Assembly (NCBI GenBank): GCA_045612025.1
Contig: JAZKYG010000020.1
Span: forward strand, 1 to 60,399
DNA length: 60,399 nucleotides
Origin: Bacteroidales bacterium
GTDB lineage: Bacteria > Bacteroidota > Bacteroidia > Bacteroidales > F082
Direction of reading: 5' to 3'
The notes under the pieces were generated by a model, which saw only the letters and a list, made by a program, of their open reading frames with translations, made no database searches and was not told the DNA's origin. Within the stretch, counting starts at the first letter, position 1. Every line of letters starts with the position of its first letter. Shown here piece by piece: positions 16,913 through 57,490 of the stretch. Both the position numbers and the translations under genes were made by a program.

Positions 16913-19210
16913 ATGAATATCAAGAAATATATAACTCTATTTTGCTTAATATTTTTTAGCATTATATCATACGCACAAAAAACCATTCATGAATGGACTA
17001 CTCACGTCCCTGGTTCTAAAGTCATTAACGTTGAGAAAGTCAATGATATAATATATGCCGCAACGCCATACGAGATTTTCTATTACAACACTGGCGACAA
17101 CTCCATAAACAAACTCACTAAAGTCAACGGCTTATCCGATTTCGGCATCAACGTGATGCGCTATAATCCTCATACTGATATGATTTTCATTGGATATTCC
17201 AACGCAAACATCGACATCATCGATAAAGACGGAAACATCATTAACATCAGTGATATCAAAAATAAAAATATCTTAGTTGACAAAAACATCAATGACGTCT
17301 ATTTCATTGAAGACAAAGCCTATCTCAGCTGCGGCTTCGGCATCGTACTTGTCGACCTTAACAGAATGGAGATAAAAGAGACTTACATTATCGGCGGGAA
17401 CGGTTCTTATCTAAATATCAACGACATAACTTTATATAACGGCAAATTATATGCTGCAACAAGCAATGGCATCTATTATGCCGACTACGACAATGACAAC
17501 CTCGTAGATTTTTCTCAATGGACACACGACAAGACCGTCATCCATAAAAACTTAAATTATTCTGAAATTGAGACCTTTAACAATCTATTGATTACAAACT
17601 ACTCAAGAAACGAATACAACACCGACACATTATTCGTATATGATGGAGAGAAATGGGATTATCACCAATACTCACCGCCTTCTATAAAAAGAAGCATCAG
17701 AGCATATGATGACAGACTTGTGCTTTCCAACAACTACTCAATCGTCGCGTTGGATGTAAACAACGATTTAATTGCACAATCATATAACAGCAACATCGAG
17801 CCTTTCGACTGTATCTATGATGAAAGCGACGATGCATATTGGATTGCAAACAAAACCAACAGCATATACAAACTAATCCCTACAGTTTCTTGCAATCCTA
17901 TAATTTTCAACGGACCATACAGCAATTACGTCTTTGAATTAAAGGCAAGCGGCGATCAGTTGTGGGTTGCACCTGGAGGATATTCCAGCGTATGGGCTAA
18001 GAACTGGATGAAAGATGGCGTGTTTTATTATGTAAATAACAAATGGCATAATATAAATCGCACTAATACAGAAGCCTTTGACACTATATCAGATATCGTT
18101 TCCATCGCCATAGATCCTATAAACAACTCAAAAGTATATGTCGGTTCATTCCACAAAGGCATACTTGAATTCGAGGATTTTGAGTTAAAAAACATTTACG
18201 ATACAAAGAACAGCAGCCTTGGAGAATTGAGCGGCTACGGTTACGTATATATCACCGGCATGGACTTCGACAGCAAGAACAACTTATGGATTGCAAACAG
18301 CAGCACCGAAAACATGCTGTCGGTCAAGACAACCAAAAACGAATGGTACTCATTTAACATAGGTTCTACCAACGTCAGCAAGATATTGGTTGACAACAAC
18401 AATTACAAATGGATTTTAAATCGTGATGGAAATCTGATCGTTTACAACGACAAAAACACTATTTCTAATTCCTACGATGACGAATACAAAATCATCAGCA
18501 CTACAAAAGGACAAGGCGGACTTCCAGAAGCTGCAAACTGCATGGCAATAGATAAAGACGGAACCGTATGGATTGGCACTAACGATGGTCTGGCACAGTT
18601 CTACTCAACATCAAAGATATTCAGACAAGGCACAAACTACGACGCATCAAGAATACTAGTTCCAAGAAACGATGGCTCCGGACAAGCCGACTATCTTCTC
18701 TCAGGAGAATCTGTACTTTCAATTTGCGTTGATGACGCCAATAACTTATGGGTTGGAACAAGAAACGGCGCTTTCTATATCTCCAACAACGGACTCACTG
18801 AATATCACCATTTCACACAAGACAACAGCCCTTTGCTCTCAAATACCATCAACGACATTGCTATCAACAAAGACGGCGACATTTTCTTTGGCACCGACAA
18901 AGGCATCATCTCGTTAAGAGGCAGAGCCACAGAGGGCAAGACAACGAACTCCGATGTGATAGTATATCCAAATCCTGTAAGACAAAATTATTCTGGTCTT
19001 GTCGGTATCAAGAACCTTGTCGCCAACTCATTGGTAAAGATTACTACCGTTGACGGTTCTTTCGTGACGCACCTCCGCTCTGAAGGAGGACAGGCCGTTT
19101 GGGATTGCACTACCATCAATGGCGATAAAGTCGCACCTGGCATATATCTCATCTTCGTCACTGACGAAAACGGCAAAGAGACATTCGCTACAAAAATACT
19201 TATAATGTAA
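16913..19210 (+). CDS. Double beta-propeller protein with a T9SS C-terminal domain; PorZ-like
   Basis: A signal peptide, repeated Reg_prop-like blades (NGLSD..., WIGT.DGL, WVGTRNG), and the C-terminal sorting domain VYPNPV...GIYLIFV. The PorZ identification is tentative. Confidence 0.75.
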   Translation: MNIKKYITLFCLIFFSIISYAQKTIHEWTTHVPGSKVINVEKVNDIIYAATPYEIFYYNTGDNSINKLTKVNGLSDFGINVMRYNPHTDMIFIGYSNANIDIIDKDGNIINISDIKNKNILVDKNINDVYFIEDKAYLSCGFGIVLVDLNRMEIKETYIIGGNGSYLNINDITLYNGKLYAATSNGIYYADYDNDNLVDFSQWTHDKTVIHKNLNYSEIETFNNLLITNYSRNEYNTDTLFVYDGEKWDYHQYSPPSIKRSIRAYDDRLVLSNNYSIVALDVNNDLIAQSYNSNIEPFDCIYDESDDAYWIANKTNSIYKLIPTVSCNPIIFNGPYSNYVFELKASGDQLWVAPGGYSSVWAKNWMKDGVFYYVNNKWHNINRTNTEAFDTISDIVSIAIDPINNSKVYVGSFHKGILEFEDFELKNIYDTKNSSLGELSGYGYVYITGMDFDSKNNLWIANSSTENMLSVKTTKNEWYSFNIGSTNVSKILVDNNNYKWILNRDGNLIVYNDKNTISNSYDDEYKIISTTKGQGGLPEAANCMAIDKDGTVWIGTNDGLAQFYSTSKIFRQGTNYDASRILVPRNDGSGQADYLLSGESVLSICVDDANNLWVGTRNGAFYISNNGLTEYHHFTQDNSPLLSNTINDIAINKDGDIFFGTDKGIISLRGRATEGKTTNSDVIVYPNPVRQNYSGLVGIKNLVANSLVKITTVDGSFVTHLRSEGGQAVWDCTTINGDKVAPGIYLIFVTDENGKETFATKILIM

Positions 19211-27579: not shown

Positions 27580-29520
27580 ATGAGAAAATCTTTACAATTA
27601 GTGCTATTTTCTGCACTATTATTCTGCGGCCTCAATTTAAGAGCTCAAAACACAACTACACCTGAGGTAAAAGTTGACAGAAGCGAGAACTTTACACTTG
27701 TCAAAGTCCTCAACAGTTACAACTGGCCTTATGACATTTCAAATAACAAAAAACACGTTGTCATCCAAGGTTTCGGCGCCGTTGACGGTTACTACTGGTC
27801 AGAAGAAACAGGCGTCATTTCATTGACAGGATATCCTTATGCAGTATCTGACGACGGTATCGTTGCGGGTTCTTATATGAATGGCATCGGTATGAACGTT
27901 GCAGGTTTATGGACTGCCGAAACAAAACAATGGGAATTCTTAGGCATGAACCCAGCTTTGCCTGAATTTTCAACTGTTGAAGGTGACACAGACTACAATG
28001 GCGCATGGTCAATGACAAACGACGGCAGCATTGTCGGTGTTATGCAGGTATATCCAGACTGGAGCACAACATCATACCTTTGGTCAAGAGAAAAAGGTTA
28101 CACAGTGATCGAAAACGGCGTTTCTGCACAAACAAGACCTAACGCAATCAGTGATGATGGAAAAGTTGTAGCAGGTTTAGCAGCACACGAAACAAAAGGC
28201 GAATGGACTCCTTGCTATTGGGTTGACGGAAAAATCAACAGATTCCCTCACCTCTTCGGTGAAGCATTAAACGTTTCACATAATGGCAATTACATCTGTG
28301 GTTATTTATTAAACGGACAAGGTTTCGTTTACGATATCGCAAATGACAAAATGGTTACAATTGACAACACTCTCGAAGAAGGATTCCAATTATCAGCAAC
28401 ATGTGTAACAGACAACGGCATTATCTTCGGTCATTCTGACGGCGGTTCACCTCAAGACAGAGACGGCATCGTTTATATTGGCGGCGACTTGATGTACTTC
28501 AAAGAATATTTAACAATAAAAGGCGTTGAAGAAGCTGCAAACTGGACTATTTACAGCATAACAAATGTTACACCTGATGGCAACACATTCATCGGCGGCG
28601 GCGTTATCGACGGCAATGAATGTTCTTTCATTTTAACATTAGAACCTACATGTGAAGCTCCTAAAAACTTAACCTACGAAATAGGACCTAACCATAACGA
28701 CATTACACTCAATTGGGAAGCTCCAGAAAATGCAGAAAACGTCACATACAACATTTACCTCAACTATAAAGGTGCTCCATTTGCAGAAAGCATCACAGAA
28801 ACAACATTCTCTTTTGACGGCATGGAACCAGGTGAATATCAATTCTTGGTAAGAGCCAACTACAATAATGGAGAATGCCTCTCTGACATATCAAATACGG
28901 TAAGACCTACTATCTATCCTTGCCCAGAAAACCACAAATGCGAACTCACAATCGTTGCAAACGACATGTATGGTGACGGTTGGGACTTCGGTTACATCAG
29001 CATCAAAGGCGCATTGAGCGATTTGGAATATAAAGTTGAATTGACAGACGGCGGCGGTGAAGAAAACCCTGAAATCATAACTCTTGATTTATGCCCAGAC
29101 ACTTACCAATTCACATGGGTTCCTGGCAACTGGGACGAAGAAAACGGATTCATCATCAATTTCCAAGATGAAGAAATCTATAGAGCAAACATCGGTGACA
29201 TCGATTCAACATTCAAGAAAAAACCTATGTTCTTAGAATATGAATTGGCTTGCGAACCAAGCGATGGAATTGACAATCCAACAATTTCAGAATCATCACT
29301 CAACATCTATCCTAACCCTGTAAACAACAGACTCTTCATCACAGCAGACGAAAAAATCGAGTCTGTAAGCATCTACACAATCACAGGCGTGATGATTTGC
29401 AACGAACAATGCTCAATGAACAATGTACAATTGGATGTTACAAGCCTCAACAGCGGCATTTATTTCGTAAAAATCAATACAAAAGAAGGCGAAATAACAG
29501 AACGCTTCGTTAAAGAATAA
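27580..29520 (+). CDS. Secreted repeat protein with an FN3-like domain and a T9SS C-terminal sorting domain
   Basis: A signal peptide, HAF-like repeats (SDDGIVAG, TNDGSIVGV, SDDGKVVAG, TDNGIIFGH), and the C-terminal LNIYPNPVNNRLFI...GIYFVKI. Confidence 0.85.
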   Translation: MRKSLQLVLFSALLFCGLNLRAQNTTTPEVKVDRSENFTLVKVLNSYNWPYDISNNKKHVVIQGFGAVDGYYWSEETGVISLTGYPYAVSDDGIVAGSYMNGIGMNVAGLWTAETKQWEFLGMNPALPEFSTVEGDTDYNGAWSMTNDGSIVGVMQVYPDWSTTSYLWSREKGYTVIENGVSAQTRPNAISDDGKVVAGLAAHETKGEWTPCYWVDGKINRFPHLFGEALNVSHNGNYICGYLLNGQGFVYDIANDKMVTIDNTLEEGFQLSATCVTDNGIIFGHSDGGSPQDRDGIVYIGGDLMYFKEYLTIKGVEEAANWTIYSITNVTPDGNTFIGGGVIDGNECSFILTLEPTCEAPKNLTYEIGPNHNDITLNWEAPENAENVTYNIYLNYKGAPFAESITETTFSFDGMEPGEYQFLVRANYNNGECLSDISNTVRPTIYPCPENHKCELTIVANDMYGDGWDFGYISIKGALSDLEYKVELTDGGGEENPEIITLDLCPDTYQFTWVPGNWDEENGFIINFQDEEIYRANIGDIDSTFKKKPMFLEYELACEPSDGIDNPTISESSLNIYPNPVNNRLFITADEKIESVSIYTITGVMICNEQCSMNNVQLDVTSLNSGIYFVKINTKEGEITERFVKE

Positions 29521-29550: not shown

Positions 29551-29556
29551 GAGAAG

Positions 29557-29588
29557 GTCGCTGCGAGAAAAATCGTAGCGACTTTTTT
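29557..29588 (+). terminator. Rho-independent terminator
   Basis: GTCGCTGCGAgaaaaaTCGTAGCGAC followed by TTTTTT. Confidence 0.7.
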
Positions 29589-29636
29589 ATAATAAAAAGT
29601 CTTACGACATAAGCACATGACTCCAAATAAAATCAC

Positions 29637-29644
29637 TATCTTTG
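29637..29644 (+). promoter_or_regulatory. -7 box TATCTTTG, probably for the 29669..35301 operon
   Basis: It matches TAnnTTTG and lies 24 nt upstream of ATG 29669. Confidence 0.45.
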
Positions 29645-29668
29645 CATATTATCAATATCTTCATTCAA

Positions 29669-30406
29669 ATGCGAAAATTCATATTAACAATAATATCCAT
29701 CATCTGCATCATTTGCGTCTCGTGCCAAAAACAAACTAACGATTTTCAAAGAGATTATAAGAAAATCTGGTTACATCGCGCCAACACTATCGAAAAAGCC
29801 CAATATTTTCAAGACAAATATGCAGGTCTGGAAATCGACATAACATACTTGGATTCTTTACATACATTTATTGTTTTTCATGGCGGAGGATTATCCGAAC
29901 CAGAACCTGTCACTTTAGAACAGTGGTTTGATGAAGTGGGAAATGCAAATAAACTAAAGCTTTGGCTTGATTTCAAAAATCTCAGCAACGACAACCAAAT
30001 GCCAGCGCTTAAAGAACTTAACCGCCTGTGTGAAAAATACAATATCCGCAAAAACAATATTATCGTTGAAAACTGGAATGCAAAATATCTGTCATCATTT
30101 CAAGAAAACGACTATCAAACAAGTTATTATATTCCAGATTTCAACCCGCAGAAAGCATCAAACTATGACATACAAAAACATACATATAAAATTCGTAAAG
30201 CAATATCTTCCTACAATATAACAACTATTTCAGGCTATCATTACCAATATCAATTCATGAGAGATTCTTTCCCAGAGCAGAACGTTTTGATTTGGTATAT
30301 CAATAACGACAAGAAAGTTCAAGAGGAATATATTCAATTGGTCAACCAAGATGACAAGGTAAAGGTTCTGCTCATCGCAGATGAAATTCCAGAAAACAAA
30401 AAATAA
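29669..30406 (+). CDS. Lipoprotein, PLC-like/glycerophosphodiester-phosphodiesterase-like (tentative); paralog of 35334..36065
   Basis: Lipobox IICVSC, then WLHRAN...GLEIDITY (the H-R ... E-x-D pattern of PLC-like phosphodiesterases). It shares WLDFKNLS.DN and DSFPEQN with the paralog. Confidence 0.75.
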   Translation: MRKFILTIISIICIICVSCQKQTNDFQRDYKKIWLHRANTIEKAQYFQDKYAGLEIDITYLDSLHTFIVFHGGGLSEPEPVTLEQWFDEVGNANKLKLWLDFKNLSNDNQMPALKELNRLCEKYNIRKNNIIVENWNAKYLSSFQENDYQTSYYIPDFNPQKASNYDIQKHTYKIRKAISSYNITTISGYHYQYQFMRDSFPEQNVLIWYINNDKKVQEEYIQLVNQDDKVKVLLIADEIPENKK

Positions 30407-30422
30407 TCATAACAATAACGAT

Positions 30423-32876
30423 ATGATAAATAATATCAAAGACAGCATAAAACAATGGATTCATCTCAACATTTTATTGTTGATGATGATGTTTGTTATC
30501 AGAATCATATTTTTCATTGAAGTAACGACACGTATCAACATTGATGCATCTCAATTTTCAAACATCATTCTAGGCATAAAATATGATCTGCTTCTTGCAG
30601 GCCACCTTATCGCATGGCTTGCTCCTATCTTCTTGTTTTTCCATCATTTCTTTCCAAAAACAACAAATAATATTTACAAAGCCTTAATTTTCATTTACGC
30701 AATAATATCTACATCTTTAACAGAATATTTCTGCAATTTGATGATGCCTTTAGACCACGTCATCTTTGCATATTCCGTTGAAGGACTGAAAGGCGCAGTC
30801 GAGTCATCGACATCATTTTCAATAGTTCCAATATTATATTTCGCAATTTCTTTAGCACTTTGCATTTTAATTTCCAGACTATGGAAAAGAGTAAAGGTTG
30901 GAAATATTTTCTCATACGTCATTCTTATAGCGTCTTTAGGCGTCGCTATTGCATTCAACTACAGCAACATTATAAGAAAAGAACGTTATTGCAACAATCA
31001 CCAGGACTTTATATTAGCGACAAATCAACCTTCATATTCACTAATTAAGATAAGTGATTACCTGAGAAAGGACGATACACAAGACGAAAGCGAAATTGAG
31101 ATAATTTACAAAACATGCGAAAGCTATCATAAGTCAAACAATCAGTTTTCATATCCTTACAAAGATTATCCATTTTACAGAAAAGCTGATTATCAGGATG
31201 TCTTAGGTTCTTTATTGAAAAAGACCTCAAACGGAGAAAAACCTAATTTCGTCTTTGTCATTATTGAAGGCTTCGGACAATGTCTGACTGGCGCTGAAAC
31301 ACCTACGATTTCATTCACCCCTCTCATCGACAGTATGAAAAACGAAAGCCTTTATTGGAAAAACTGCCTGTCGGCAACAGAAAGGACATTCGGCGTACTT
31401 CCAACAATTTTTGCATCCACGCCTCATGGCAAAAAAGGATTCGGGCATCGTTACGAATTAATGCCGCTGCATAACTCTTTGTTAAAAGACTTTAAGAAAA
31501 ACGATTACGACATATCATATTATTATGGCTGTTACCGCGACATTGACAGATATGACAATTTCCTTAAAGCCAACGACATAGAAAATATATTCATTCCTAC
31601 ACAAGGTTCCGTTGATGATGAAGCATACAAGTTGATGCAAGAAAACAACAGATGGGGCATCGATGATGAAGAATTATTTAACATCGTCATAAACGATAAA
31701 AAATCAAACGATAGCGACAAACCTTTCGTTGATATCATAATGACACTTAGCACACATGAGCCTTTTATCATTCTTGAAGGACAGGAAAAATACGAGCAAA
31801 AAGTAATGCAGATTCTTGAAAGCAACGAGGGCGTAAGTGCAAAAGAAAAGAATATCATCACCAAGAATCCAAATGTCTTTGCATGCTATCTATATATGGA
31901 TGAATGCGTCAAGAACCTCATCGATTCTTATAAGGAAATAGGCAAATACGATAACACCATTTTCGTCATCACTGGCGACCATAGAATTGGAATGATGACA
32001 ACAGGCAATGTTCTACGCTCCTTCAATGTGCCTCTTCTCATCCATTCGCCTTTACTTAAAGAAAACAGACAGATGGACGCTGTCGTCTCTCACTACGACA
32101 TAACTCCAACAATAAACGCTTATCTATCAAACAACTTTGATTATCAAGTTGACAACTACTGCCATTGGCTCGGAACTTCTTTAGATACCGTTAAGGAATT
32201 CAGAAGCAATATAAAACAAGCATTCATGCTCAACAACAGAGATGTCATCGACTATCTGCATGACGAATATTTCTTGTGCAGGAGCAAACTTTACAAGATT
32301 GACAGCAATTTAAAATTGATATCTATAGACGACCCTGGATTATATCAAGAACTTAAAAAAGAACTTGACGATTACAACCTCTTAAGCGCCTATGCACTGG
32401 GGTCCAATTTCTTAAGCAGAGACATCGACGAGAATTTTATAGATATAGGCGAATATCATTTCGACATCGACAACACAACAAACAAGATTTTCAACAATTT
32501 AACAGTCGACTCTCTTGAAAATAAATTCGTCTATTTTGATGAAAACAAGGAATATATATCGTTGTATCCTTATCTGGAAGTCGAAGATGATTTCACCAAG
32601 TTCATTGTTTCTGTTTCTTTTGATTTACAATCATATACAGAAAACAAACTTCCTCTTTTGATATATACAATAGGTGATTTTTATCAAGCCGTGCCATTGG
32701 TTTCATTGCAAAATGAAAGTCTTAACACTGGAGATGTGGAGCATTTTGTCAATAGAATCATGATTTCAAAAAACAAGAGTTATAAAGGTGAAAAGTTAAA
32801 AATATATTTAAGAAACTCATCAAAAGACAGGATGATGATCGACAATATCAAGGTTCTTATAAAAGCAAGCAAATAA
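30423..32876 (+). CDS. LtaS-like membrane phosphotransferase (sulfatase/alkaline-phosphatase superfamily) with an extra C-terminal domain of about 200 aa
   Basis: About 5 N-terminal transmembrane helices, then FVFVIIEGFGQ, CLSATERTFGVLP and VITGDHRIG. I prefer ATG 30423 because it does not overlap the upstream gene. Confidence 0.85.
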   Translation: MINNIKDSIKQWIHLNILLLMMMFVIRIIFFIEVTTRINIDASQFSNIILGIKYDLLLAGHLIAWLAPIFLFFHHFFPKTTNNIYKALIFIYAIISTSLTEYFCNLMMPLDHVIFAYSVEGLKGAVESSTSFSIVPILYFAISLALCILISRLWKRVKVGNIFSYVILIASLGVAIAFNYSNIIRKERYCNNHQDFILATNQPSYSLIKISDYLRKDDTQDESEIEIIYKTCESYHKSNNQFSYPYKDYPFYRKADYQDVLGSLLKKTSNGEKPNFVFVIIEGFGQCLTGAETPTISFTPLIDSMKNESLYWKNCLSATERTFGVLPTIFASTPHGKKGFGHRYELMPLHNSLLKDFKKNDYDISYYYGCYRDIDRYDNFLKANDIENIFIPTQGSVDDEAYKLMQENNRWGIDDEELFNIVINDKKSNDSDKPFVDIIMTLSTHEPFIILEGQEKYEQKVMQILESNEGVSAKEKNIITKNPNVFACYLYMDECVKNLIDSYKEIGKYDNTIFVITGDHRIGMMTTGNVLRSFNVPLLIHSPLLKENRQMDAVVSHYDITPTINAYLSNNFDYQVDNYCHWLGTSLDTVKEFRSNIKQAFMLNNRDVIDYLHDEYFLCRSKLYKIDSNLKLISIDDPGLYQELKKELDDYNLLSAYALGSNFLSRDIDENFIDIGEYHFDIDNTTNKIFNNLTVDSLENKFVYFDENKEYISLYPYLEVEDDFTKFIVSVSFDLQSYTENKLPLLIYTIGDFYQAVPLVSLQNESLNTGDVEHFVNRIMISKNKSYKGEKLKIYLRNSSKDRMMIDNIKVLIKASK

Positions 32877-32883
32877 TAATATC

Positions 32884-35301
32884 ATGAGAAAATATATAGA
32901 ATATATAAAACCATTTTTCACTTTAACAATCTGTTTTACAATTGTTTTACTCTGCATTAAAAGTCTTGAGATATTTTCATCAGACTCTGTAAAACTAGAT
33001 TTTATCGCAGAAATGATTTATAGTAATCTCATCGCTTCTTTGTTAATGAGTTTTTGCGTCTTTATTATTTTTAACATATTTTCCCTCTTTTCAAAAAAAG
33101 CAGCATTCTATATCGGTTCTATTCTATTTTCCATAATCATCATTTCAGAAACAGGTCTGATTTTTTATTATAGAACGACTGGACTTATGATGGGTAATGA
33201 ATTGATAGAACGACCTTTATGGGAAACTATCGCTACTGTAAAAAGCACCTTGAATTTCTGGATGATTGCAGCTGCAATACTATTCATTATCGCATTTGCT
33301 TTCGTTAATTATAAAATTGTCAAAAGACAAAGCCTAACAAAAGTTAACAGTCAACAAGCAACAGCCAAGGTGACATTATTTCTAATGCTGATTTCCATTC
33401 CGTTATTTTTCGTCATAAAACCAAATCAAAATGATAATGCTGTAAACAAAATATGGTATTGTTTCCATTCCTGTTTTATGGATAAAGAAACACAAAATGC
33501 TGATATTGTTTTATCTAGATTAGCATTTGACGAAGAAAAAATCGAGAAATATAAGTCGATATTTCCAGAAAGAGAAATACTTGATGACACATATCCTTTA
33601 GAAAGAACCGACAATATTAATAATGTATTAGGGCCATATTTTAAAAAGTCAGAAGAAAAGCCGAATATTGTTTTTATTATCGTTGAATCCTTGGGCTCAG
33701 ATTTGTTTGGCGTGAACAAATACGGTTACATTTTCACTCCGTTTTTAGACTCATTATCAAGACATTCATTATTATGGACTAACTGTTTATCAACGACTCC
33801 ACGCAGTTTCGGTGCTGTTCCTGCCATCACAGGTTCCGTTCCTCACGGACTAAAAGGATTTCAGTTCGGTGATATTCCAGAATATAATTCTTTGTTTAGC
33901 GTATTGAAAGATAATGATTATGAGACAAATGCATTTTATGCTGGAGAATATTCCTTCGATAAAGTCTATGATTATTTGGTATCTCAAAAGATAGATTTCA
34001 TGGCTCCGCTTTTTGAGGATCATAAAAAGAAAGAAAACAAACATCTAGATTTTACGTATTGGGGATACCAAGACATGCCAATGTTTGACAAAAGCATAGA
34101 TATCATCAAGAAACGTAAGGAAAACAAACCATACTTTGACTTATTCATAACGATATCCCAACACGATAACAGATTAAAACTCAACGACAAAGACAAAACA
34201 GACAAATATTATGAAAAGGTTTCTGAAATCATAGCGACATTGCCAGAAAGCGAGCATAGCAATATGAATGACATTTCAGGATACCTCGCTGCGACTTTAT
34301 ATGGCGACGATGCAATAAAACATTTTGTTAAAAAATATTCAGAATATTACAAAGAAGGAAATTATATCTTCGTCATCACTGGAGACCATAGTCTTAACAT
34401 AAATTCAGAAAATCCATTAAACGGATTTCATGTGCCTTTGATTATCTGGTCGCCGATGTTGGAAAAGACAGACCGTTTTAATTCTGTCGTTTCGCATAAT
34501 GACATTATTCCTACTTTAAATGCTTTATTAAGAGATAACTACAATTTCAAAACACCTGAAAAAATACACTGGGTCGGAGGAGAACTCGATACAATAAAAG
34601 ATTTCCATTGCGACTTGAAAACATGTTTCTTGAGATACACTAGAACTATCTTTGACGGTATCTATGAAAACTATTATTATGATTTCTCAAAATCGAAAAA
34701 GGCATATCTTATCGGTGAAAATCTTGAACTTACAGAGGTCGACGATGATGATGTAATTAACAATATTGACGAAAATTTCAAAGCATTGATATACGCCGAC
34801 AATTATTCATACACAAATAATAAAGTCTGCAAAGACCCTATATTCCCTCAAAATAAATTCAAAGTTATTGACGAATATCACATTGATTCTGTATATTGTT
34901 CATCATTGGCAAAAAAACCTAGCGTTAAAAAGCCTAAAGAAGTTGATATAATTTCTGATGAGATCAAGTCTATTTATAGCGAAATAAAGATTGTTATGAC
35001 TGCCGATGTCATATACACTGGCGAAGTTTGGCAGGATCAATTTATCAATCTAGGTGTAGATTTAAGTTATGACAAAGGCCAGAAGATAAATGCTTCCGAT
35101 AATATATCCAAGAGTTTTGTCAAAAGAGAATATCATCCAAACGAAATGACAAAATTGGAATTCACTAAAGTCTTCAATGTCAAAAATTTCAAGGATATTG
35201 GTTTTGAGATATATCTGAAATCTACGGAAAAAGACTATCTATGGAATCCTGAACACAGCGTTATGTTAAAAAATGTTAACATTAAGATATTAGGATCATA
35301 A
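32884..35301 (+). CDS. LtaS-like membrane phosphotransferase, paralog of 30423..32876
   Basis: It has the same architecture: IVFIIVESLGSD, CLSTTPRSFGAVPAI and VITGDHSLN. The gap to the upstream gene is 7 nt. Confidence 0.85.
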   Translation: MRKYIEYIKPFFTLTICFTIVLLCIKSLEIFSSDSVKLDFIAEMIYSNLIASLLMSFCVFIIFNIFSLFSKKAAFYIGSILFSIIIISETGLIFYYRTTGLMMGNELIERPLWETIATVKSTLNFWMIAAAILFIIAFAFVNYKIVKRQSLTKVNSQQATAKVTLFLMLISIPLFFVIKPNQNDNAVNKIWYCFHSCFMDKETQNADIVLSRLAFDEEKIEKYKSIFPEREILDDTYPLERTDNINNVLGPYFKKSEEKPNIVFIIVESLGSDLFGVNKYGYIFTPFLDSLSRHSLLWTNCLSTTPRSFGAVPAITGSVPHGLKGFQFGDIPEYNSLFSVLKDNDYETNAFYAGEYSFDKVYDYLVSQKIDFMAPLFEDHKKKENKHLDFTYWGYQDMPMFDKSIDIIKKRKENKPYFDLFITISQHDNRLKLNDKDKTDKYYEKVSEIIATLPESEHSNMNDISGYLAATLYGDDAIKHFVKKYSEYYKEGNYIFVITGDHSLNINSENPLNGFHVPLIIWSPMLEKTDRFNSVVSHNDIIPTLNALLRDNYNFKTPEKIHWVGGELDTIKDFHCDLKTCFLRYTRTIFDGIYENYYYDFSKSKKAYLIGENLELTEVDDDDVINNIDENFKALIYADNYSYTNNKVCKDPIFPQNKFKVIDEYHIDSVYCSSLAKKPSVKKPKEVDIISDEIKSIYSEIKIVMTADVIYTGEVWQDQFINLGVDLSYDKGQKINASDNISKSFVKREYHPNEMTKLEFTKVFNVKNFKDIGFEIYLKSTEKDYLWNPEHSVMLKNVNIKILGS

Positions 35302-35305
35302 AAAT

Positions 35306-35327
35306 AAGACGCCACAAGTGACGTCTT
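35306..35327. terminator. Bidirectional hairpin between convergent genes
   Basis: AAGACGCCACAAGTGACGTCTT, with A/T runs on both sides. Confidence 0.55.
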
Positions 35328-35333
35328 TATTTA

Positions 35334-36065
35334 TCAATCAAAAATATCTGGTGTCGGATAATCTACCAGCACCACTTTCACGCTTTCTTCACGGCAGAGT
35401 CTTTTGGTAAACTCAACATTCTCTGGCGTATAATCCTTTGGCGTATCCCAGAAGTGAATATTCTGTTCCGGGAAGCTGTCACATAAAAGAGGATACATTC
35501 TATATTCACAGCTTATCGCATCAGGATGAAGGTCTTCAATCTGAGAACGTATTTTATTTACTACAGAAGCCGTATCCTTCTTATTCCAATAATAAAGATT
35601 ATCAACCCAAAGCATAATATGATAATCTTTTTTTCTTGCAACTTTAAGAGCCTTTATATCTTGACTTTCAATAAAGAACCTATCTTCAATATTATATTTC
35701 TCAACAAGTTCATCGAATACAGCCAAGGCATTTTCCGCATTATCTGCAGAAAGATTTTTGAAATCAATCCAATAACATATCTTGTTTGGTTCTTTCAACA
35801 TTGCCAACCATTCATCCAAAGGCAAGTTTTTCGATGTGTCGGCAACAACTCTTCCAACATAAATATCATTTTTCTCTGGAGAATAAATCACATCGACCTC
35901 AAGGCCATCAAACACATCTTCCAGATTTTGAGCGTCATATTTAGAATAAACTCCGTGCTTCCAGACTTTTGAATCCGGATAGTTGAAAGATTTAAGTATC
36001 ACTGGATTTTTATCACATGAGATAAACAATGATATTACAAAGATAGATAGGATGATTTTTTTCAT
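35334..36065 (-). CDS. Lipoprotein, PLC-like/GDPD-like (tentative); paralog of 29669..30406
   Basis: Lipobox LFISC, plus WKHG...GLEVDVIY, WIDFKNLSADN and DSFPEQN. Confidence 0.75.
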   Translation of the reverse strand: MKKIILSIFVISLFISCDKNPVILKSFNYPDSKVWKHGVYSKYDAQNLEDVFDGLEVDVIYSPEKNDIYVGRVVADTSKNLPLDEWLAMLKEPNKICYWIDFKNLSADNAENALAVFDELVEKYNIEDRFFIESQDIKALKVARKKDYHIMLWVDNLYYWNKKDTASVVNKIRSQIEDLHPDAISCEYRMYPLLCDSFPEQNIHFWDTPKDYTPENVEFTKRLCREESVKVVLVDYPTPDIFD

Positions 36066-36087
36066 TTAGAATAAAACTTGAACGTTG

Positions 36088-36095
36088 CAAAGATA
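36088..36095 (-). promoter_or_regulatory. -7 box TATCTTTG (minus strand) for 35334..36065
   Basis: It is the divergent partner of the TACCTTTG box at 36116..36123. Confidence 0.45.
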
Positions 36096-43312: not shown

Positions 43313-44026
43313 CTACAAATCATTCCTTACTCCTAATTTATCAAAAGTAAATCCTCTTTCCACATAATATTCAAGGACTTTTGTAAGTGCTGGAATCATA
43401 TTGTTTACTGCTTTTTCGCTGTCGTGAAAGACGATGATACTTCCGTCGTCGGCATTTTTTATCACATTATTAAAACAATCCTCCTGACTTAAAGACTTAT
43501 CCCAATCGTAAGATATCACAGTCCAAGCCACTATTTTAAATTCTGGAATTCTAGAACTCTCGAACTTTAGAAGTTCAGATTTATCTTTAATTTCTAAACT
43601 TCTGAGGTTCTGAGATTTTGAATTTCTGAGCTTTTTAATCAATCTGATTTGTGATGATTTGATCCTTCCATGAGGCGGACGGAAAAGAGGCGATTGTATC
43701 AAAGCGTCGGCTTGTTCTACGGAATTTATGTAATCTTTGGTTTTTGTCTTCCATCCTCTTTCGTGATTGAAAGTATGATTTCCGACGGCATGACCTTCAT
43801 TCTTAATCAGTTCGAAAGTATCTTTATATTTATTAACATTATTGCCGATGCAGAAGAAAGTCGCTTTAGCGTTAAATTTCTTTAAGATTTCAAGAACCTG
43901 CGGAGTTATAGTTGGATGCGGACCGTCATCGAAAGTGAGGTAAAGTTTTTTCTCACCCTTAGGCATTTCCCAAAGAAATGAAGGATAGAACAGTCTTAAT
44001 ATTTTCGGAGTCGTGATGAGGCGCAT
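43313..44026 (-). CDS. Polysaccharide deacetylase (NodB/CE4 family) carrying an in-frame repeat insertion
   Basis: TFDDGP, HAVGNHTFNH and LFRPPHG motifs. Its ATG lies 2 nt after the stop of the upstream kinase gene. Confidence 0.88.
   Translation of the reverse strand: MRLITTPKILRLFYPSFLWEMPKGEKKLYLTFDDGPHPTITPQVLEILKKFNAKATFFCIGNNVNKYKDTFELIKNEGHAVGNHTFNHERGWKTKTKDYINSVEQADALIQSPLFRPPHGRIKSSQIRLIKKLRNSKSQNLRSLEIKDKSELLKFESSRIPEFKIVAWTVISYDWDKSLSQEDCFNNVIKNADDGSIIVFHDSEKAVNNMIPALTKVLEYYVERGFTFDKLGVRNDL
43538..43627 (-). repeat. Intergenic-type repeat (TTCTGAG/GAACTTTAG/TCTAGAAC families) embedded in frame in the NodB CDS
   Basis: The plus strand reads ...TTCTAGAACTCTCGAACTTTAGAAGTTCAG...TTCTGAGGTTCTGAGATTTTGAATTTCTGAG. 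It encodes RNSKSQNLRSLEIKDKSELLKFESSRIPEF, between the RPPHG motif and the VAW..DW motif. Confidence 0.85.
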
Positions 44027-44028
44027 AA

Positions 44029-44967
44029 TCAGTTCAATAAATTTAACCTATTTGTGATAATGTCTTTATATGCAATTTTCATTTCATCTGGTAAGAAAGA
44101 AATATCTATAAAGTCGAACCATTTATCTTTTACTTTCAAGAATTTATTAAAAATATTTCCAATAACTTTTTCTTCTAATTCCGACGCCCGCATTGAAATT
44201 TCAAAATCCGATTTTCTAATTTTACGCTTCTTTCCATTCAATGTAAGAGCAAGTTCCTCAATGTCTTCAGGCATAACCAAAGCCGTTGACAACATATCAT
44301 AAGCCGGTGTAAGATTATATAGATGATCGACTTTACTATACAAAGAAAAATTTTTCAGATGCATATCTGCATTACCTGTTATCCATGAAAAAACAACTTG
44401 TTCCCAATAGTTTACTAAATCCAATTTGGGAACAGATGAATATTTTTGTATGACTTTTGCAATTTGTTCATACGAGCCTTTGTACTTATGTTCCGTCAAA
44501 CGTTCTGTAAGCTGACACATATCTTCCATTGCCAATTTTTCACCATTTTCAGTACGATCTATACGTCGTGTTATATAACAAAGTTCACCATCTGAAAACC
44601 GAATCAAACTATGAGGAACAACTTGGATTTTCGCTATTTCAGCTAAATGCATAGTTAAATCCTCTAATTCAGGAAGATTTGCAAAACGTTCCGTCTGAGG
44701 TTTTAGAATATACCTTCCCCACAAACCAACAATTGTGAATCTCTCTGCCTCATTACGACCGCTTTTTTTTATATCCAAAGACAATTTTGCTTGTACGCCT
44801 GTTAATGTCGTTTGGCTACGCACAACCTGTCTTGCAAGTTCGGTAAGATTGTCTCGAGTATAAGGCAACTCTGGAGCTGTTGTTGCACCGAATATTTTTC
44901 TCGAACAAGAACTATGAAAATCTATCTCATTATCAGCAAGCTCTTTATAACAAAACAAACATTTCAT
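44029..44967 (-). CDS. HipA-family Ser/Thr kinase core (HipT-like toxin) with an N-terminal CxxC zinc-ribbon-like segment
   Basis: CLFCYKELADNEIDFHSSC, the Gly-rich loop TLTGVQAKLSL, the catalytic motif GNADMHLKNFS, and TPAYDMLS. Confidence 0.85.
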   Translation of the reverse strand: MKCLFCYKELADNEIDFHSSCSRKIFGATTAPELPYTRDNLTELARQVVRSQTTLTGVQAKLSLDIKKSGRNEAERFTIVGLWGRYILKPQTERFANLPELEDLTMHLAEIAKIQVVPHSLIRFSDGELCYITRRIDRTENGEKLAMEDMCQLTERLTEHKYKGSYEQIAKVIQKYSSVPKLDLVNYWEQVVFSWITGNADMHLKNFSLYSKVDHLYNLTPAYDMLSTALVMPEDIEELALTLNGKKRKIRKSDFEISMRASELEEKVIGNIFNKFLKVKDKWFDFIDISFLPDEMKIAYKDIITNRLNLLN

Positions 44968-44968
44968 A

Positions 44969-45298
44969 CTACTTCTCCTCATTATTTATAAGTTCAACAC
45001 CAACAGCACCAATACAATCTTTACAACATGCCACTAACAACGACATTCTATCACGAGCATCTATTTTCCAATTATTTTCAGCTATATCCAACAACCAGCC
45101 TTCTGGAATAAGTCCGTCAAAAAAGGGGAAAAGAACTTTTTCATTATACGGTTTTTCCGTCAATGGCAATGTTAAACTTATAGCTTCAGCTTTAGTTGAA
45201 TAAAGAAAATTCAAATCATACTGAAATGTATACCCATTCTCATCCTCGGTAAGAATTCCAGCTTTTTCACCTCGTAAAAAAACGGTAGCTTGTTTCAT
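44969..45298 (-). CDS. HipA N-terminal-subdomain-like protein (HipS-like)
   Basis: 109 aa, with VFLRGEKAGILTEDENGYTFQYD...PFFDGLIPEGW, which resembles the N-terminal subdomain of full-length HipA. Its stop lies 1 nt from the kinase ATG. Confidence 0.75.
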   Translation of the reverse strand: MKQATVFLRGEKAGILTEDENGYTFQYDLNFLYSTKAEAISLTLPLTEKPYNEKVLFPFFDGLIPEGWLLDIAENNWKIDARDRMSLLVACCKDCIGAVGVELINNEEK

Positions 45299-46344: not shown

Positions 46345-46351
46345 GTTTTTG

Positions 46352-46423
46352 TACCCCCACCGGGAATCGAACCCAGATTTAAAGTTTAGGAAACTTTCGT
46401 TCTATCCGTTGAACTATAGGGGC
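46352..46423 (-). tRNA. tRNA-Arg (anticodon CCU)
   Basis: I folded the reverse complement GCCCCTATAGTTCAACGGATAGAACGAAAGTTTCCTAAACTTTAAATCTGGGTTCGATTCCCGGTGGGGGTA by hand into a cloverleaf. The anticodon stem is AAAGT/ACTTT, the loop is TTCCTAA, the T-loop is TTCGATT, and no CCA is encoded. Confidence 0.85.
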
Positions 46424-47838: not shown

Positions 47839-48912
47839 TTGTGCATAGCGCATAAGTTAAAATATAGAAAAACAAAAGCATTGAAAAAGAAGATTTCCAA
47901 TATTTTAACATATATTGTTTTCCTCTTATTGGGAATACTTCTTCTATGGCTTTGCTTTAGAAAAATAAATTTCTCAGAAGTCTTGGATTATGTCAAGACT
48001 GCAAAATATTCCTGGATGTTGCTAAGTCTGGCATGTCTGGGAATATCTTTATTTTTCAGGGCCTTACGCTGGAATATCTTGATAGAATCTCTTGGATATA
48101 AAACAAGAGTGTCAACAACTTACGAATCAGTTCTGATAGCATATTTCGCCAACACGGTCTTCCCACGACTAGGCGAAGTGACACGCTGCGGAACACTCAC
48201 AAAAAAAGAAAACATACCTTTCGACAAGTCATTCGGAACCGTCATCTCCGAACGCGTCCTCGACCTGGCCATTTTATTTGCAATGGCGATATTAGTCGTT
48301 GTATGTCAATGGAATCTGCTTGGAAGTCTCATCACCTCTTGGCTTAATCCTTTGATAGAAACCTTAAAAAACAATATCGTCTTAGGCGTGATATCAATTT
48401 CCGCAATAGTTGCAGTTTTTGCTGCTATCGTATTCATCTTCAGAAAGAAAAAAGATATTATAGCAGAAAATAAGATATACAGAAAAATAGCTTCTATCTG
48501 CAATGGTTTCCTCGATGGCATCAAGACAATCTTCACCATGGAGAAGAAAGGTTTGTTCATACTTTACACCTTGTTAATCTGGGGATTTTATGTCGTAATG
48601 ACTTGGTTGCCATTCTATATGCTTCCTGAGACATCACATCTAGGATTAACAGAAGCCATCACTTTATTAGGGCTAGCGACCTTAGGCGTAGTAGCACCAG
48701 TACCAGGAGGGATGGGCGTTTATCACTTCATCGGCATACTTTTATTAAACGGATTCTACGGCATCTCAGAAGCAGCAGCCGTGTCATTCGTTACGATAAA
48801 CCATACAAGTCAGATGATTTTCTATCTCGTAACAGGCGTTATTTCTTACGTCACTATGTTCTTTATTGACAGACGGAAACCGATTAATGAGGAGTTAGGA
48901 GTTAGGAATTAG
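47839..48912 (+). CDS. UPF0104 / MprF-type flippase-like transmembrane domain protein
   Basis: Eight or more transmembrane helices, with a [28 protein letters not shown] start region. There is no ATG near the 5' end, so the start is either TTG 47839 or TTG 47881. Confidence 0.75.
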
Positions 48913-51761: not shown

Positions 51762-52562
51762 ATGGAAGACTATTCAAGATATAACGGAGAAGGCACCATG
51801 CTTAGAAAAGCACAGATGCGTGAAGTAGAGATACTTGTTGAAGTTGACAAGATTTGTCGCAAACACGATATAAAATATTGGATCGATTTCGGTTCTTTAC
51901 TTGGTGCGGTGCGTCACAAAGGATTCATTCCATGGGACGACGACCTCGACATCTCCATGCTCAGCGAAGACTATAAAAGATTTCTTGAAATAGCACCTAA
52001 AGAATTGCCAGAATGGCTTTTCTTACAGGACCAAAACACAGACCCTACCTACAGACGTTCTATCTGCAAAATAAGAGACCTTAATTCTTTCTTTGTCGAA
52101 CAATATGACGACTTCTCTGCTCCATATAAAAAAGGCATCTTCATCGACATTTTCGAGATAATAGAATATCCTAAAGTATCTCTAAAGACGTTACGATTTT
52201 TATCAAAATGGTCTATCAAAACAAGCCAATTCTTTGATATAAAACAATATATAAATCTTAAAAACATCGTAGCCGGAATAACATTTCCTTTCATAAAATT
52301 ATTCTTAAAGATATTCTGGAAATGTCTGTATATCAGAAAATCTGACAACATAATAGGTTGTCATCTTATACACAATCATCCTTACAAATCATTGATAAGC
52401 AAAGATTATATCTTTCCTCTTTCTGAAATAGAATTTGAAGGCAAGAAATTCATGGCACCAAATAACACTGACGCTTGTTTGAAAGCTCTATATAACGACT
52501 ATATGAGCATTCCGAAAGAAGAAGACAGATGGATTCACTCTAAGTTTATATCTGTCAATTAG
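51762..52562 (+). CDS. licD: LicD-family phosphotransferase (phosphocholine/phospho-alditol transferase family)
   Basis: LRKAQMREVEIL...ICRKHDIKYWIDFGSLLGAVRHKGFIPWDDDLDISM. Confidence 0.88.
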   Translation: MEDYSRYNGEGTMLRKAQMREVEILVEVDKICRKHDIKYWIDFGSLLGAVRHKGFIPWDDDLDISMLSEDYKRFLEIAPKELPEWLFLQDQNTDPTYRRSICKIRDLNSFFVEQYDDFSAPYKKGIFIDIFEIIEYPKVSLKTLRFLSKWSIKTSQFFDIKQYINLKNIVAGITFPFIKLFLKIFWKCLYIRKSDNIIGCHLIHNHPYKSLISKDYIFPLSEIEFEGKKFMAPNNTDACLKALYNDYMSIPKEEDRWIHSKFISVN

Positions 52563-53697
52563 TTCCTTTTAATACCTTATCGTATTGTCTTATTATCTCT
52601 TTTGCAATGCTTTGAGGAGAAAATCTCTCGTGACATTCCTGGCTTATTTTTGCTGATTGATATTTATCAATATTTAAGCGCATACGTGTCAATGCATCTG
52701 CTAAGAAATCAATGTCATTTACAGGAATCAGGATACCATTATCATCATTAACGAAATCTTCCGGACCGCCACAACGTGTTGCAATGACAGGCTTGCCACT
52801 TGCCATCGCTTCTATATACACGACGCCAAAAGTCTCACTCGTAGAAGCCAAAACAAAAGCATCAGCATCAGTCATCAAAGCTGACAGCTCATGACGTGGC
52901 TTTTGTCCTAACAACTTTATATTTTCACCAATATCATATTGATTTATAACACCTTGTAGATTATCCCTTTCTAAACCTTCTCCTACTATATACAAAAAGA
53001 CATCTTTCTCATTTGAGAAAGCTTTATGAAAAGCCTTTATCAAAACATCAAAGCCTTTAAGCGGTATCAGGTTTCCTACCGATAAAAAAACAAAACCTTG
53101 GTTATTAGCATGTTCCACATACTGATAAGTTGTCACATCAACAATATCATGCACTATAGAACTATCGAATCCAAAATTATTTTTAATGTTTTGTGATAAA
53201 GACTTTGAAACTGCAATAATAGAATCAGCATCAGAATACGCTTTGACAGCCAAGCGTCTATCCAACTCACTAATAAGGCTAGCGTCCTTATTTAATTTAC
53301 TGCTATGTTCTGTGATGAAGAATGGCACTTTAGCTTTTTTCTTAATTATCGAAGCGATTGCAGCTATTGAATAGAAATGTGCGTGTACTACATCAGGTTT
53401 CCCGACTTTCTTAACGGCTTTTTTATATAAAAACCAAAGCAGTCTTTGCAATATTGGCAAGGCTCTTCGATAGACACCTAATGGCAAAGAAAGTTCAAAT
53501 ACTTTCACACCATCTCTTTCGTATGAGAAGAACCCATATTTTCTTTTATAAGCCATTGATCTGAAATCCATTACAAGCATTGAAGCATCGACTCCACTTT
53601 CAGCCAAGGCTTTAGCTTGGTCGAATTCAAATATCCCATATAAAGGATACTCCTTAGAAGGGATTCCTCTTGATATTATAAAAGATTTCATAATCAA
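52555..53697 (-). CDS. Glycosyltransferase, GT4-like (GT-B fold)
   Basis: SETFGVVYIEAMASGKPVIATRCGGPEDFV (an E-x7-E type motif). Its 3' end overlaps licD by 8 nt in convergent orientation. Confidence 0.88.
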   Translation of the reverse strand: MIMKSFIISRGIPSKEYPLYGIFEFDQAKALAESGVDASMLVMDFRSMAYKRKYGFFSYERDGVKVFELSLPLGVYRRALPILQRLLWFLYKKAVKKVGKPDVVHAHFYSIAAIASIIKKKAKVPFFITEHSSKLNKDASLISELDRRLAVKAYSDADSIIAVSKSLSQNIKNNFGFDSSIVHDIVDVTTYQYVEHANNQGFVFLSVGNLIPLKGFDVLIKAFHKAFSNEKDVFLYIVGEGLERDNLQGVINQYDIGENIKLLGQKPRHELSALMTDADAFVLASTSETFGVVYIEAMASGKPVIATRCGGPEDFVNDDNGILIPVNDIDFLADALTRMRLNIDKYQSAKISQECHERFSPQSIAKEIIRQYDKVLKGTN

Positions 53698-53701
53698 TAA
53701 T

Positions 53702-55000: not shown

Positions 55001-55001
55001 T

Positions 55002-55031
55002 TTAATTCATAATGCACAATGCATAATTATT
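55002..55031. repeat. CATAATK-family repeat between co-oriented genes
   Basis: TTAATTCATAATGCACAATGCATAATTATT. Confidence 0.8.
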
Positions 55032-57480: not shown

Positions 57481-57490
57481 GATTCTTAAC

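Follow-up and report, generated by a model that had tools for sequence, protein, structure and literature searches.

Conserved pairing of LtaS-like genes with genes for predicted Menorin/GDPD-like lipoproteins in Bacteroidales

Genes resembling that for lipoteichoic acid (LTA) synthase, LtaS, lying beside genes for lipoproteins of a different enzyme class in a diderm bacterium raise the question of what such a combination makes or modifies. The locus concerned is a four-gene cassette, lipoA, ltaB, ltaC and lipoD, on contig JAZKYG010000020.1 of a Bacteroidales genome (assembly GCA_045612025.1), of which positions 1 to 60,399 were analyzed as a whole and are termed the window. The pairing of lipoprotein genes with LtaS-like genes is real, as it is seen both in the genomic neighborhoods retrieved starting from either kind of gene and in gene fusions. 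We propose that the periplasmic transferases and the phosphodiesterase install, and then cleave, a phosphodiester-linked decoration of the cell envelope, a reading to which we give about an even chance of being correct. The four genes with their spacings (16 nt between lipoA and ltaB, 7 nt between ltaB and ltaC) and all sequence motifs quoted in the initial annotation of this DNA are present as described there.

Proteins encoded by the cassette

The genes and the domains of their products are arranged as follows.

lipoA, 29669-30406, + strand: 245-residue lipoprotein counted from the ATG, predicted Menorin/GDPD-like phosphodiesterase of the phospholipase C (PLC) type with a TIM barrel
ltaB, 30423-32876, + strand: 817-residue predicted LtaS-like head-group transferase
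ltaB transmembrane region, about residues 1-184, + strand: from hydropathy
ltaB Sulfatase domain, residues 274-564, about 31242-32114, + strand: from Pfam
ltaB C-terminal domain, about residues 618-817, 32274-32873, + strand
ltaC, 32884-35301, + strand: 805-residue LtaS-like paralogue of ltaB
ltaC Sulfatase domain, residues 260-548, about 33661-34527, + strand: from Pfam
ltaC C-terminal helix and eight-strand β-sandwich, residues 600-805, 34681-35298, + strand: from the AlphaFold2 (AF2) model
lipoD, 35334-36065, - strand: 243-residue lipoprotein, paralogue of lipoA, convergent to ltaC

The mechanical open reading frame of lipoA opens earlier, at TTG 29642. An in-frame ATG further upstream of ltaB, at 30381, would yield 831 residues; orthologue alignments begin at residue 1 of the 817-residue form.

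Both large proteins match the Pfam Sulfatase family (PF00884) above its gathering cut-off of 25 bits, ltaB with 91.1 bits (E = 1e-25) and ltaC with 112.8 bits (E = 2.7e-32), and they share 35% identity over 390 residues of the catalytic region (E = 5e-67) in line with the paralogy originally claimed. The formylglycine-sulfatase motif C/S-x-P-x-R is not found at the nucleophile position, where SATERT (ltaB) and STTPRS (ltaC) are present instead, and the NCBIfam sulfatase models score only 23-46 bits against cut-offs above 430; on these two grounds a true sulfatase identity was ruled out. The active-site set comprises the Glu in IIEGFG/IVESLG, the Thr in SATERT/STTPRS, the His in STHEP/SQHDN and the Asp-His in TGDH, which we take to serve as metal ligands, nucleophile and substrate-pocket histidine as in LtaS. 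It is nearly invariant across 36 homologues and aligns to the Vibrio protein VP1736 (PDB code 3lxq) and to the Listeria LTA primase LtaP, with the threonine of STTPRS in ltaC aligned with that of ATGTRS in VP1736. The single-sequence PDB match of ltaB is 3lxq (E = 1e-10). The family profile ranks VP1736 (6e-17) and LtaP (2e-8) first, with true sulfatases scoring lower and no phosphoethanolamine (PEtN) transferase at E ≤ 1e-3, and together with the threonine site this ranking upholds the original assignment of the large proteins to the LtaS type. Relatives carry the NCBI label "LTA synthase family protein" and ltaB has weak NCBIfam LTA-synthase and YejM matches, but the LtaS equivalog model NF053595 gives ltaB 27.8 bits against a cut-off of 970 and does not match ltaC. 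By these comparisons ltaB and ltaC are predicted to be LtaS-like head-group transferases at the superfamily level and not LtaS orthologues. The ltaB orthologues are 71-89% identical across eight syntenic loci.

The topology of both proteins comes from a Kyte-Doolittle hydropathy scan alone, which places five transmembrane segments in ltaC (residues 10-33, 43-71, 73-95, 118-147 and 158-181) and four or five N-terminal transmembrane-like segments in ltaB. The C-terminal ~200 residues of ltaC are modeled as a long helix and an eight-strand β-sandwich (AF2 predicted local distance difference test score, pLDDT, 87.8). Hydropathy and model thus agree with the five or so helices and the extra domain of about 200 residues read from the sequence initially. 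Between the C-terminal domains of the two proteins a relation is seen at the profile level only (hhalign probability 95%, E = 2.6e-8). A fold search with the ltaC domain returned only weak jelly-roll matches (template modeling score, TM, 0.3-0.5), among them TNF-like lectins, a MAM domain, viral jelly rolls and an alginate-binding module, and no family emerged; on the modeled fold, carbohydrate binding is plausible.

The lipoproteins lipoA and lipoD are 30% identical end to end (E = 1e-27), which confirms the second paralogy, and have in common WLDFKNLSNDN/WIDFKNLSADN and DSFPEQN; lipoA contains in addition WLHRAN and LEIDITY. Both start with a signal peptide and a lipobox cysteine (VSC/ISC; MRKFILTIISIICIICVS-C and MKKIILSIFVISLFIS-C), and Cys19 is at least 90% conserved in the family. 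Neither protein matches Pfam at E ≤ 0.1 or any NCBIfam family. A word-indexed homology search returned 102 relatives of the lipoproteins, two with a Pfam Menorin match and none with a functional name. In the alignment of 61 family members, 13 touch Menorin (PF10223, best E = 2e-6) and none matches Pfam GDPD at E ≤ 0.01, leaving Menorin as the sole Pfam family touched; the fusion protein P0253, described below, reaches 24.5 bits against the Menorin cut-off of 25. Profile searches with the families suggested initially therefore succeed for Sulfatase and give a divided result for GDPD and FAM151, with relatives touching Menorin while lipoA and lipoD match neither model.

No usable sequence-level match to the PDB is found with lipoA, either as a single sequence or as a profile. 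The AF2 model (pLDDT 91.8) has a (β/α)8-like order of elements, and the best 17 Foldseek matches in the PDB are all glycerophosphodiester phosphodiesterases (GDPDs), with E-values of 1.4e-8 to 1.5e-5 and TM of 0.55-0.62 (best match E = 1.4e-8, TM 0.60) at 11-16% sequence identity. The matches include the Bacillus subtilis teichoicase GlpQ, the GDPD domains of staphylococcal phages (phage K/phi812) and the Staphylococcus aureus lysophosphatidylglycerol (lyso-PG) phospholipase D (PDB code 8ghi). The catalytic set of lipoA is complete, with H36-R37, E55-x-D57, H71, D101/K103 (in W99-x-D101-F-K-N) and E134; for H36, R37, E55, D57, H71 and E134, conservation in the family alignment is total or no lower than 90%. 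In the model these residues are located at the C-terminal ends of strands 1-5 (those at residues 33-35, 53-61, 66-69 and 131-135 among them). Published work places the FAM151/Menorin proteins in the PLC-like superfamily and ascribes to them the same pattern of active-site residues (PMC6965129). Model and sequence comparisons together support lipoA as a predicted PLC-like/GDPD-superfamily barrel that in sequence is nearest to Menorin/FAM151.

The PLC-like fold and catalytic pattern proposed for both lipoproteins hold for lipoA, whereas lipoD lacks the second catalytic histidine. It retains the first His, the E-x-D, the WxDFKN and E134, but Gly replaces Arg37 and the segment of the second His (YVGRV) contains none, substitutions that are kept in six orthologues and in P0102. 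The lipoD gene is absent in two relatives (L002 and L007) and truncated in a third (L003). In this last locus, the closest relative (lipoA 95% identical), the orthologue at L003:15677-16159 (- strand) matches residues 70-222 only, the N terminus being gone, and is probably a pseudogene. By sequence, lipoD appears to be a diverged, dispensable copy with an incomplete catalytic set.

Pairing, fusions and the larger cluster in relatives

A scan covering 185,579 species, each represented by one genome, was made with the narrow alignment A2 as the locus query, which reaches close relatives only, so that the genome and metagenome scans undersample the family; the wide 61-sequence alignment A1 had no conserved peptide stretch and was unusable for this purpose. 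The species scan gave 13 loci, all in uncultured Bacteroidales from animal guts. Every one of them has one to three LtaS-like genes no more than about 5 kb away from the lipoprotein gene, and in 11 the two kinds of gene are direct neighbors. Eight of the 13 have the synteny of the window (SOD, type IX secretion system (T9SS) cargo, cassette, prolyl oligopeptidase); in five, at 42-45% identity, the flanks differ and the pairing is retained. When contig look-ups and the metagenome scan are included, 25 of the 30 loci retrieved via the lipoprotein have a sulfatase-family neighbor, the exceptions being one real case (P0035, loci L014/L015) and three short or end-of-contig loci. Approached from ltaC homologues, L031 carries a convergent lipoD-type gene, L033 repeats the layout of the window, and L032 is an LtaS-like locus without any phosphodiesterase. 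The co-occurrence in other genomes that the initial annotation called for is thus found, and it extends beyond shared synteny and into gene fusions; chance adjacency of the two kinds of gene was rejected on this evidence.

The lipoA-ltaB pair stands alone in L009, L010 and L023 and the convergent ltaC/lipoD pair alone in L031. These two pair types give some support to a duplicated unit, as had been suggested. The picture of a mirrored cassette is not supported, as the duplication is old (30-35% identity) and not symmetric.

A profile search of 1.84 billion representative proteins identified 1594 family members at E ≤ 1e-3 (each representing a cluster at 50% identity), 421 of them at E ≤ 1e-30. 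Among the best 150 of the 1594, eight are single polypeptides in which a Sulfatase domain is followed by the phosphodiesterase domain (P0253, P0301, P0344, P0346, P0355, P0329, P0324 and P0291) and one has an acyltransferase 3 (AT3) domain followed by the phosphodiesterase (P0339, a 17-member cluster). A CptA-like phosphoethanolamine transferase is present in all three fusions that were scanned (P0253, P0346 and P0355) and in the short sulfatases of L017 and L019, whose genes adjoin distant lipoprotein homologues (E = 1e-43 to 1e-112 for these five matches). At L035:2348-6558 an 802-residue LtaS-like gene lies directly 5' of an AT3-phosphodiesterase fusion. Through these fusions and neighborhoods the predicted phosphodiesterase is tied to head-group transferases of two branches, LtaS-like and CptA-like, and to membrane acyltransferases. 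"Hypothetical protein" was the sole name returned by the cluster look-ups for distant members and fusions. A 1204-residue Acyl_transf_3 and Sulfatase (LtaS-like) fusion is also encoded at L021:3683-7297 (- strand), 1 kb from a lipoprotein homologue.

The pair belongs to a larger cluster in 19 related loci, where it is accompanied by an MBOAT protein and one to four SGNH proteins of the AlgX/DHHW type; 14 loci contain an additional lipoprotein of ~640 residues with a GH16-type EIDIE motif, and three contain AT3 proteins. To judge from the families present, the MBOAT and AlgX/DHHW set resembles the extracytoplasmic O-acylation machinery of AlgI/AlgJ/AlgX or DltB/DltD. In L001, L002, L008 and L033 the MBOAT and AlgX genes are flanked directly by the prolyl oligopeptidase gene on one side and by lipoD, or by ltaC in loci lacking lipoD, on the other; the remaining relatives bearing them are L009-L013, L016, L023, L025, L026 and L028-L032. 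The MBOAT, AlgX and GH16-like genes are missing from the window and from its closest relatives L003, L004 and L006, and a tblastn search across all 60 kb of the window finds no homologue of MBOAT or AlgX. The window therefore holds a reduced form of a modular envelope-modification cluster.

Proposed mechanism and alternatives

In the proposed mechanism ltaB and ltaC would be inner-membrane enzymes of the LtaS/OpgB kind, each with a periplasmic metal-dependent domain of the alkaline-phosphatase superfamily carrying a Thr nucleophile and with a lectin-like β-sandwich. The phospho-alcohol head group of a membrane phospholipid would be taken onto the Thr nucleophile and then passed to a hydroxyl of an envelope glycoconjugate, leaving diacylglycerol behind. 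The donor would most likely be phosphatidylglycerol, giving glycerol-phosphate by analogy with LtaS, OpgB and GacH, and since ltaB scores 27.8 bits against the LtaS cut-off of 970 this specificity of ltaB and ltaC is an analogy only. The acceptor may be a glycolipid, a glycan of the periplasm or the cell surface, or the lipopolysaccharide (LPS) core, and is probably held by the β-sandwich; the sandwich, which weakly resembles lectins and carbohydrate-binding modules (CBMs), the linked MBOAT/AlgX acyltransferases and the GH16-like lipoprotein point to an acceptor of the glycan type. As a metal-dependent Menorin/GDPD-type lipoprotein that would face the periplasm, lipoA would cleave the phosphodiester made by the transferases, either taking the whole decoration off, as an eraser or trimmer in the manner of GlpQ on teichoic acid, or taking the alcohol off and leaving the phosphate. 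A role for lipoD may be that of a binding or low-activity partner of ltaC, and in relatives the acyltransferases may further tailor the same substrate.

Decorations of this kind have precedents. The periplasmic glucans of Escherichia coli are decorated with phosphoglycerol and phosphoethanolamine from membrane phospholipids (PMC3818809), GacH adds glycerol-phosphate to streptococcal rhamnan (bioRxiv 10.1101/337519), and the LPS core of Porphyromonas gingivalis is reported to contain PEtN and glycerol (PMC13086638).

Several points weigh against the proposal. Both large proteins are far below the NCBIfam LtaS equivalog cut-off, lipoA reaches no Pfam family and has no sequence-level PDB match, and the fold matches of the β-sandwich are weak (TM 0.3-0.5). 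The cassette itself holds no glycosyltransferase or acceptor-synthesis gene, and the organisms concerned are all uncultured, represented by metagenome-assembled genomes. No transferase gene is found up to 10 kb from P0035 (L014/L015), and L032 lacks a phosphodiesterase, so the pairing is frequent and not obligatory. Sequence cannot separate an eraser from a processing role.

An unlikely alternative is that the product is a true teichoic-acid-like polymer in a diderm, with ltaB and ltaC acting as primase and synthase (cf. Listeria LtaP/LtaS) to extend a poly-glycerol-phosphate chain from a glycolipid on the outer side of the inner membrane. Trimming or recycling of this chain would fall to lipoA as a GlpQ-like teichoicase, and the MBOAT and AlgX/DHHW proteins of relatives would esterify it as DltB and DltD do. 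The occurrence of two diverged paralogues in tandem would fit this reading, as would LtaP being the closest characterized relative with a solved structure, the presence of GlpQ and phage teichoic-acid-degrading GDPD domains among the fold matches of lipoA, the linkage of MBOAT and AlgX/DHHW genes to the cluster in many relatives, and a weak YfhO-like membrane protein encoded 19 kb away in the window. Against it count the single LtaS-like gene of many loci (L009, L016 and L020) and a similarity to LtaS far under the equivalog level. The cluster has no glycolipid-anchor synthase, and no DltA/DltC-type genes turned up among the Pfam-annotated neighbors, although no search was aimed at them. A glycan acceptor that already exists is suggested instead by the additional lectin-like domain and by the GH16-like partner, and CptA-like PEtN transferases, with which the phosphodiesterase is paired as well, attach single groups and no polymers.

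The fusions of transferase and phosphodiesterase fit consecutive steps better than opposing ones, which speaks for a two-step phosphorylation of glycans in the periplasm, a scheme that we judge improbable. In it the transferase adds the phospho-alcohol and the Menorin-like enzyme, of the phospholipase D (PLD) type, removes the alcohol (glycerol or ethanolamine) to leave a phosphomonoester or cyclic phosphate; envelope glycans would then be phosphorylated in an ATP-free compartment. Menorin/FAM151 is reported to be closest to the spider sphingomyelinase D (SMase D)/PLD toxins, which release the head-group alcohol (PMC6965129), in agreement with such a cleavage. The structural neighbors actually found are GDPDs, which keep the phosphate on the glycerol and so favor glycerol-phosphate as the released product; the divergence of lipoD and the phosphodiesterase-free locus L032 show moreover that the step is dispensable.

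Remodeling of membrane lipids is more doubtful still. The LtaS-like enzymes would in that case pass head groups from one lipid to another, such as from a phospholipid to a ceramide or glycolipid, and the lipoprotein would act on the products or by-products as a lysophospholipase D or SMase D-like enzyme. Bacteroidales do make phospho-sphingolipids, and the lyso-PG phospholipase D of S. aureus (8ghi) is among the fold matches of lipoA, to which the relation of Menorin to the SMase D toxins (PMC6965129) can be added. A patatin-like lipase gene is also present downstream of the cassette, past the prolyl oligopeptidase gene, in syntenic loci, but it is linked within the close synteny group only, and the lectin-like domain, like the linked MBOAT/AlgX O-acyltransferases and GH16-like lipoprotein, indicates carbohydrate.

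That the genes encode ordinary nutrient-scavenging sulfatases and a glycerophosphodiesterase that are neighbors by chance, as the Pfam domain name Sulfatase and the common scavenging role of GDPDs might suggest, is highly improbable and is rejected by the Thr in place of a C/S-x-P-x-R motif at the nucleophile position, the roughly five N-terminal transmembrane segments, the lack of SusC/SusD genes both within the cassette and in its annotated flanks, the linkage conserved across divergent contexts and the existence of fusions.

Setting in the window and relation to known systems

Three candidate regulatory elements frame the cassette.

29637-29644, + strand: TATCTTTG, candidate Bacteroidota-type -7 promoter box 25 nt 5' of the lipoA ATG, assigned by position only
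36088-36095, - strand: second copy of TATCTTTG, upstream of lipoD
35306-35327, strand unassigned: GC-rich hairpin between the convergent ltaC and lipoD, with a 9-pair stem and then a T-rich tail on the - strand

The TATCTTTG box noted originally at 29637 is present, but TANNTTTG occurs 65 times in the window against 62.9 expected from shuffled sequence and is not enriched, so that the assignment as a promoter is by position. The sigma-70-type promoter scan is ill-suited to Bacteroidota. The hairpin at 35306-35327 is likely a terminator, and a hairpin with a T-run at ~29556-29589, just 3' of the upstream T9SS-cargo gene (read by eye, the terminator scan not having called it), suggests that the cassette is transcribed as a separate unit. 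Rfam and tRNA scans show no element within or adjoining the cassette. Overall, its regulatory signals are plausible and weakly supported.

The block is AT-richer than its surroundings, as first noted: its GC content is 33.6%, that of the window 38.7%, and no other 6.4-kb stretch of the window lies lower. Orthologous cassettes of relatives have the same dip, of 3.4-6.6 points, which makes it a standing property and not a mark of recent transfer. Recent horizontal acquisition was rejected as its cause because relatives with 56-95% protein identity have the cassette in synteny and with an equally high AT content.

Other features of the window are listed by position.

16913-19210: PorZ homologue, 10 kb upstream of the cassette
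27580-29520: T9SS cargo protein with an fn3 domain and Por_Secre_tail, immediately upstream of the cassette and syntenic in 10 relatives
43313-44026, - strand: polysaccharide deacetylase gene, adjoining the HipA-like gene
44029-44982, - strand: gene with a HipA-like kinase C-terminal domain
46351-46423, - strand: tRNA-Arg(CCT) gene
47839-48912, + strand: gene for an LPG_synthase_TM protein (MprF-like transmembrane domain)
51762-52562: LicD-family phosphotransferase (E = 3e-43)
52555-53697 and 53702-55000, both - strand: two glycosyltransferases of family GT4
55027-57480, - strand: 816-residue membrane protein with a borderline YfhO C-terminal match (29.6 bits, cut-off 28.5)
57523-59181, - strand: β-helix/PMP-repeat protein

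The T9SS link to the cassette is seen in the close synteny group only. A stretch at 45-46 kb has merely 29.6% GC. A separate glycan-type cluster is located at 51762-59181, about 16 kb downstream of the cassette, and a link between the two is possible. In Firmicutes, lipoteichoic acid is reported to be glycosylated by YfhO-type enzymes.

Decorating LPS, glucans and wall polymers with phospho-alcohols governs charge, antimicrobial-peptide resistance and immune recognition, and in gut Bacteroidales the genes for such envelope decorations are largely unknown. The analysis delimits a large family of bacterial phosphodiesterases, comprising about 1600 representative clusters and wholly without annotation, and ties it by neighborhood and fusion to decoration-installing enzymes, which suggests that the decorations are actively edited. 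The main value of the result is this testable link of phospho-alcohol "writers" to a candidate "editor"; the second is that it may help to identify the substrate class of FAM151/Menorin, animal genes that are needed for retinal function and dendrite branching and whose substrate is unknown (PMC6965129). A broader reading, which we put forward tentatively and regard as somewhat improbable as a whole, is that Menorin-like phosphodiesterases are dedicated erasers or processors for LtaS-like glycerol-phosphate and CptA-like PEtN transferases throughout bacteria, and in this Bacteroidales lineage take part in building or tailoring a glycerol-phosphate-bearing, O-acylated, teichoic-acid-like glycopolymer. 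If it is correct, there would be a general system for writing and then editing phospho-alcohol marks on envelope glycoconjugates, and the lineage system, including the MBOAT/AlgX and GH16-like partners of relatives, would make or tailor a polymer so far undescribed. From the fusions would then come a first hint of what the orphan animal FAM151/Menorin enzymes act on, pointing to phospho-alcohol-substituted glycans, for example those with ethanolamine-phosphate on glycosylphosphatidylinositol (GPI) anchors, which is installed by homologous transferases.

Membrane-anchored head-group transferases of the alkaline-phosphatase superfamily are well known in Gram-negative bacteria, BcsG being one diderm example (bioRxiv 10.64898/2026.09.23.753746). 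Since such transferases, among them OpgB/OpgE, BcsG and CptA/EptA, are common in diderms, an LtaS-like gene in Bacteroidales is by itself unsurprising, and its initial presentation as an anomaly was overstated. The transferase class is thus already known, whereas its conserved pairing with a Menorin/GDPD-like phosphodiesterase is uncharacterized; the literature search found no characterized system joining an LtaS-like enzyme with a GDPD/Menorin-like lipoprotein in Bacteroidota, as the initial annotation had supposed.

LtaS and LtaP of Firmicutes share with ltaB and ltaC the set of five transmembrane helices at the N terminus and, after it, an extracytoplasmic domain of the alkaline-phosphatase superfamily with the conserved Glu, Thr, His and Asp-His. 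The cassette proteins differ in their diderm host, the extra C-terminal helix and β-sandwich, the sub-equivalog similarity and the lack of glycolipid-anchor genes. CptA and EptA belong to the same superfamily, with transmembrane helices, a periplasmic domain and a phospholipid head-group donor; ltaB and ltaC match no CptA/EptA model, carry TGDH and not SDHG, and fall in the LtaS-like branch. The E. coli enzymes OpgB (phosphoglycerol), OpgE (PEtN) and OpgC (succinyl) likewise combine phospho-alcohol and acyl decoration of a periplasmic glycan (PMC3818809). The wider cluster described here resembles this osmoregulated periplasmic glucan (OPG) system in joining head-group transferases, AT3/MBOAT acyltransferases and a glycoside-hydrolase-like protein, but no OpgG/OpgH-type genes are present among its Pfam-annotated neighbors, and the likeness to OpgB is by description. 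To our knowledge the OPG system has no dedicated phosphodiesterase partner. GacH/SccH, also compared by description, is an LtaS-like enzyme that adds single glycerol-phosphate units from phosphatidylglycerol onto a wall glycan (bioRxiv 10.1101/337519), a reaction of the kind proposed for ltaB and ltaC, and differs in its Gram-positive host and in having neither a paired phosphodiesterase nor the C-terminal β-sandwich.

On the side of the lipoproteins, Menorin/FAM151 (PF10223) shares the PLC-like superfamily and active-site pattern (PMC6965129) and is the only Pfam family touched, whereas its members are animal membrane or secreted proteins and not bacterial lipoproteins, lipoA and lipoD miss the model, and the kinship is remote and sequence-based. 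The GDPDs, including GlpQ and those of phage K/phi812, have in common with lipoA the TIM barrel and the H-R, E-x-D, H and E at the strand ends, and enzymes of the GlpQ type cleave glycerol-phosphate off teichoic acid. In contrast to these, lipoA has 11-16% identity, no Pfam GDPD match, and the form of a lipoprotein that is genetically tied to transferases.

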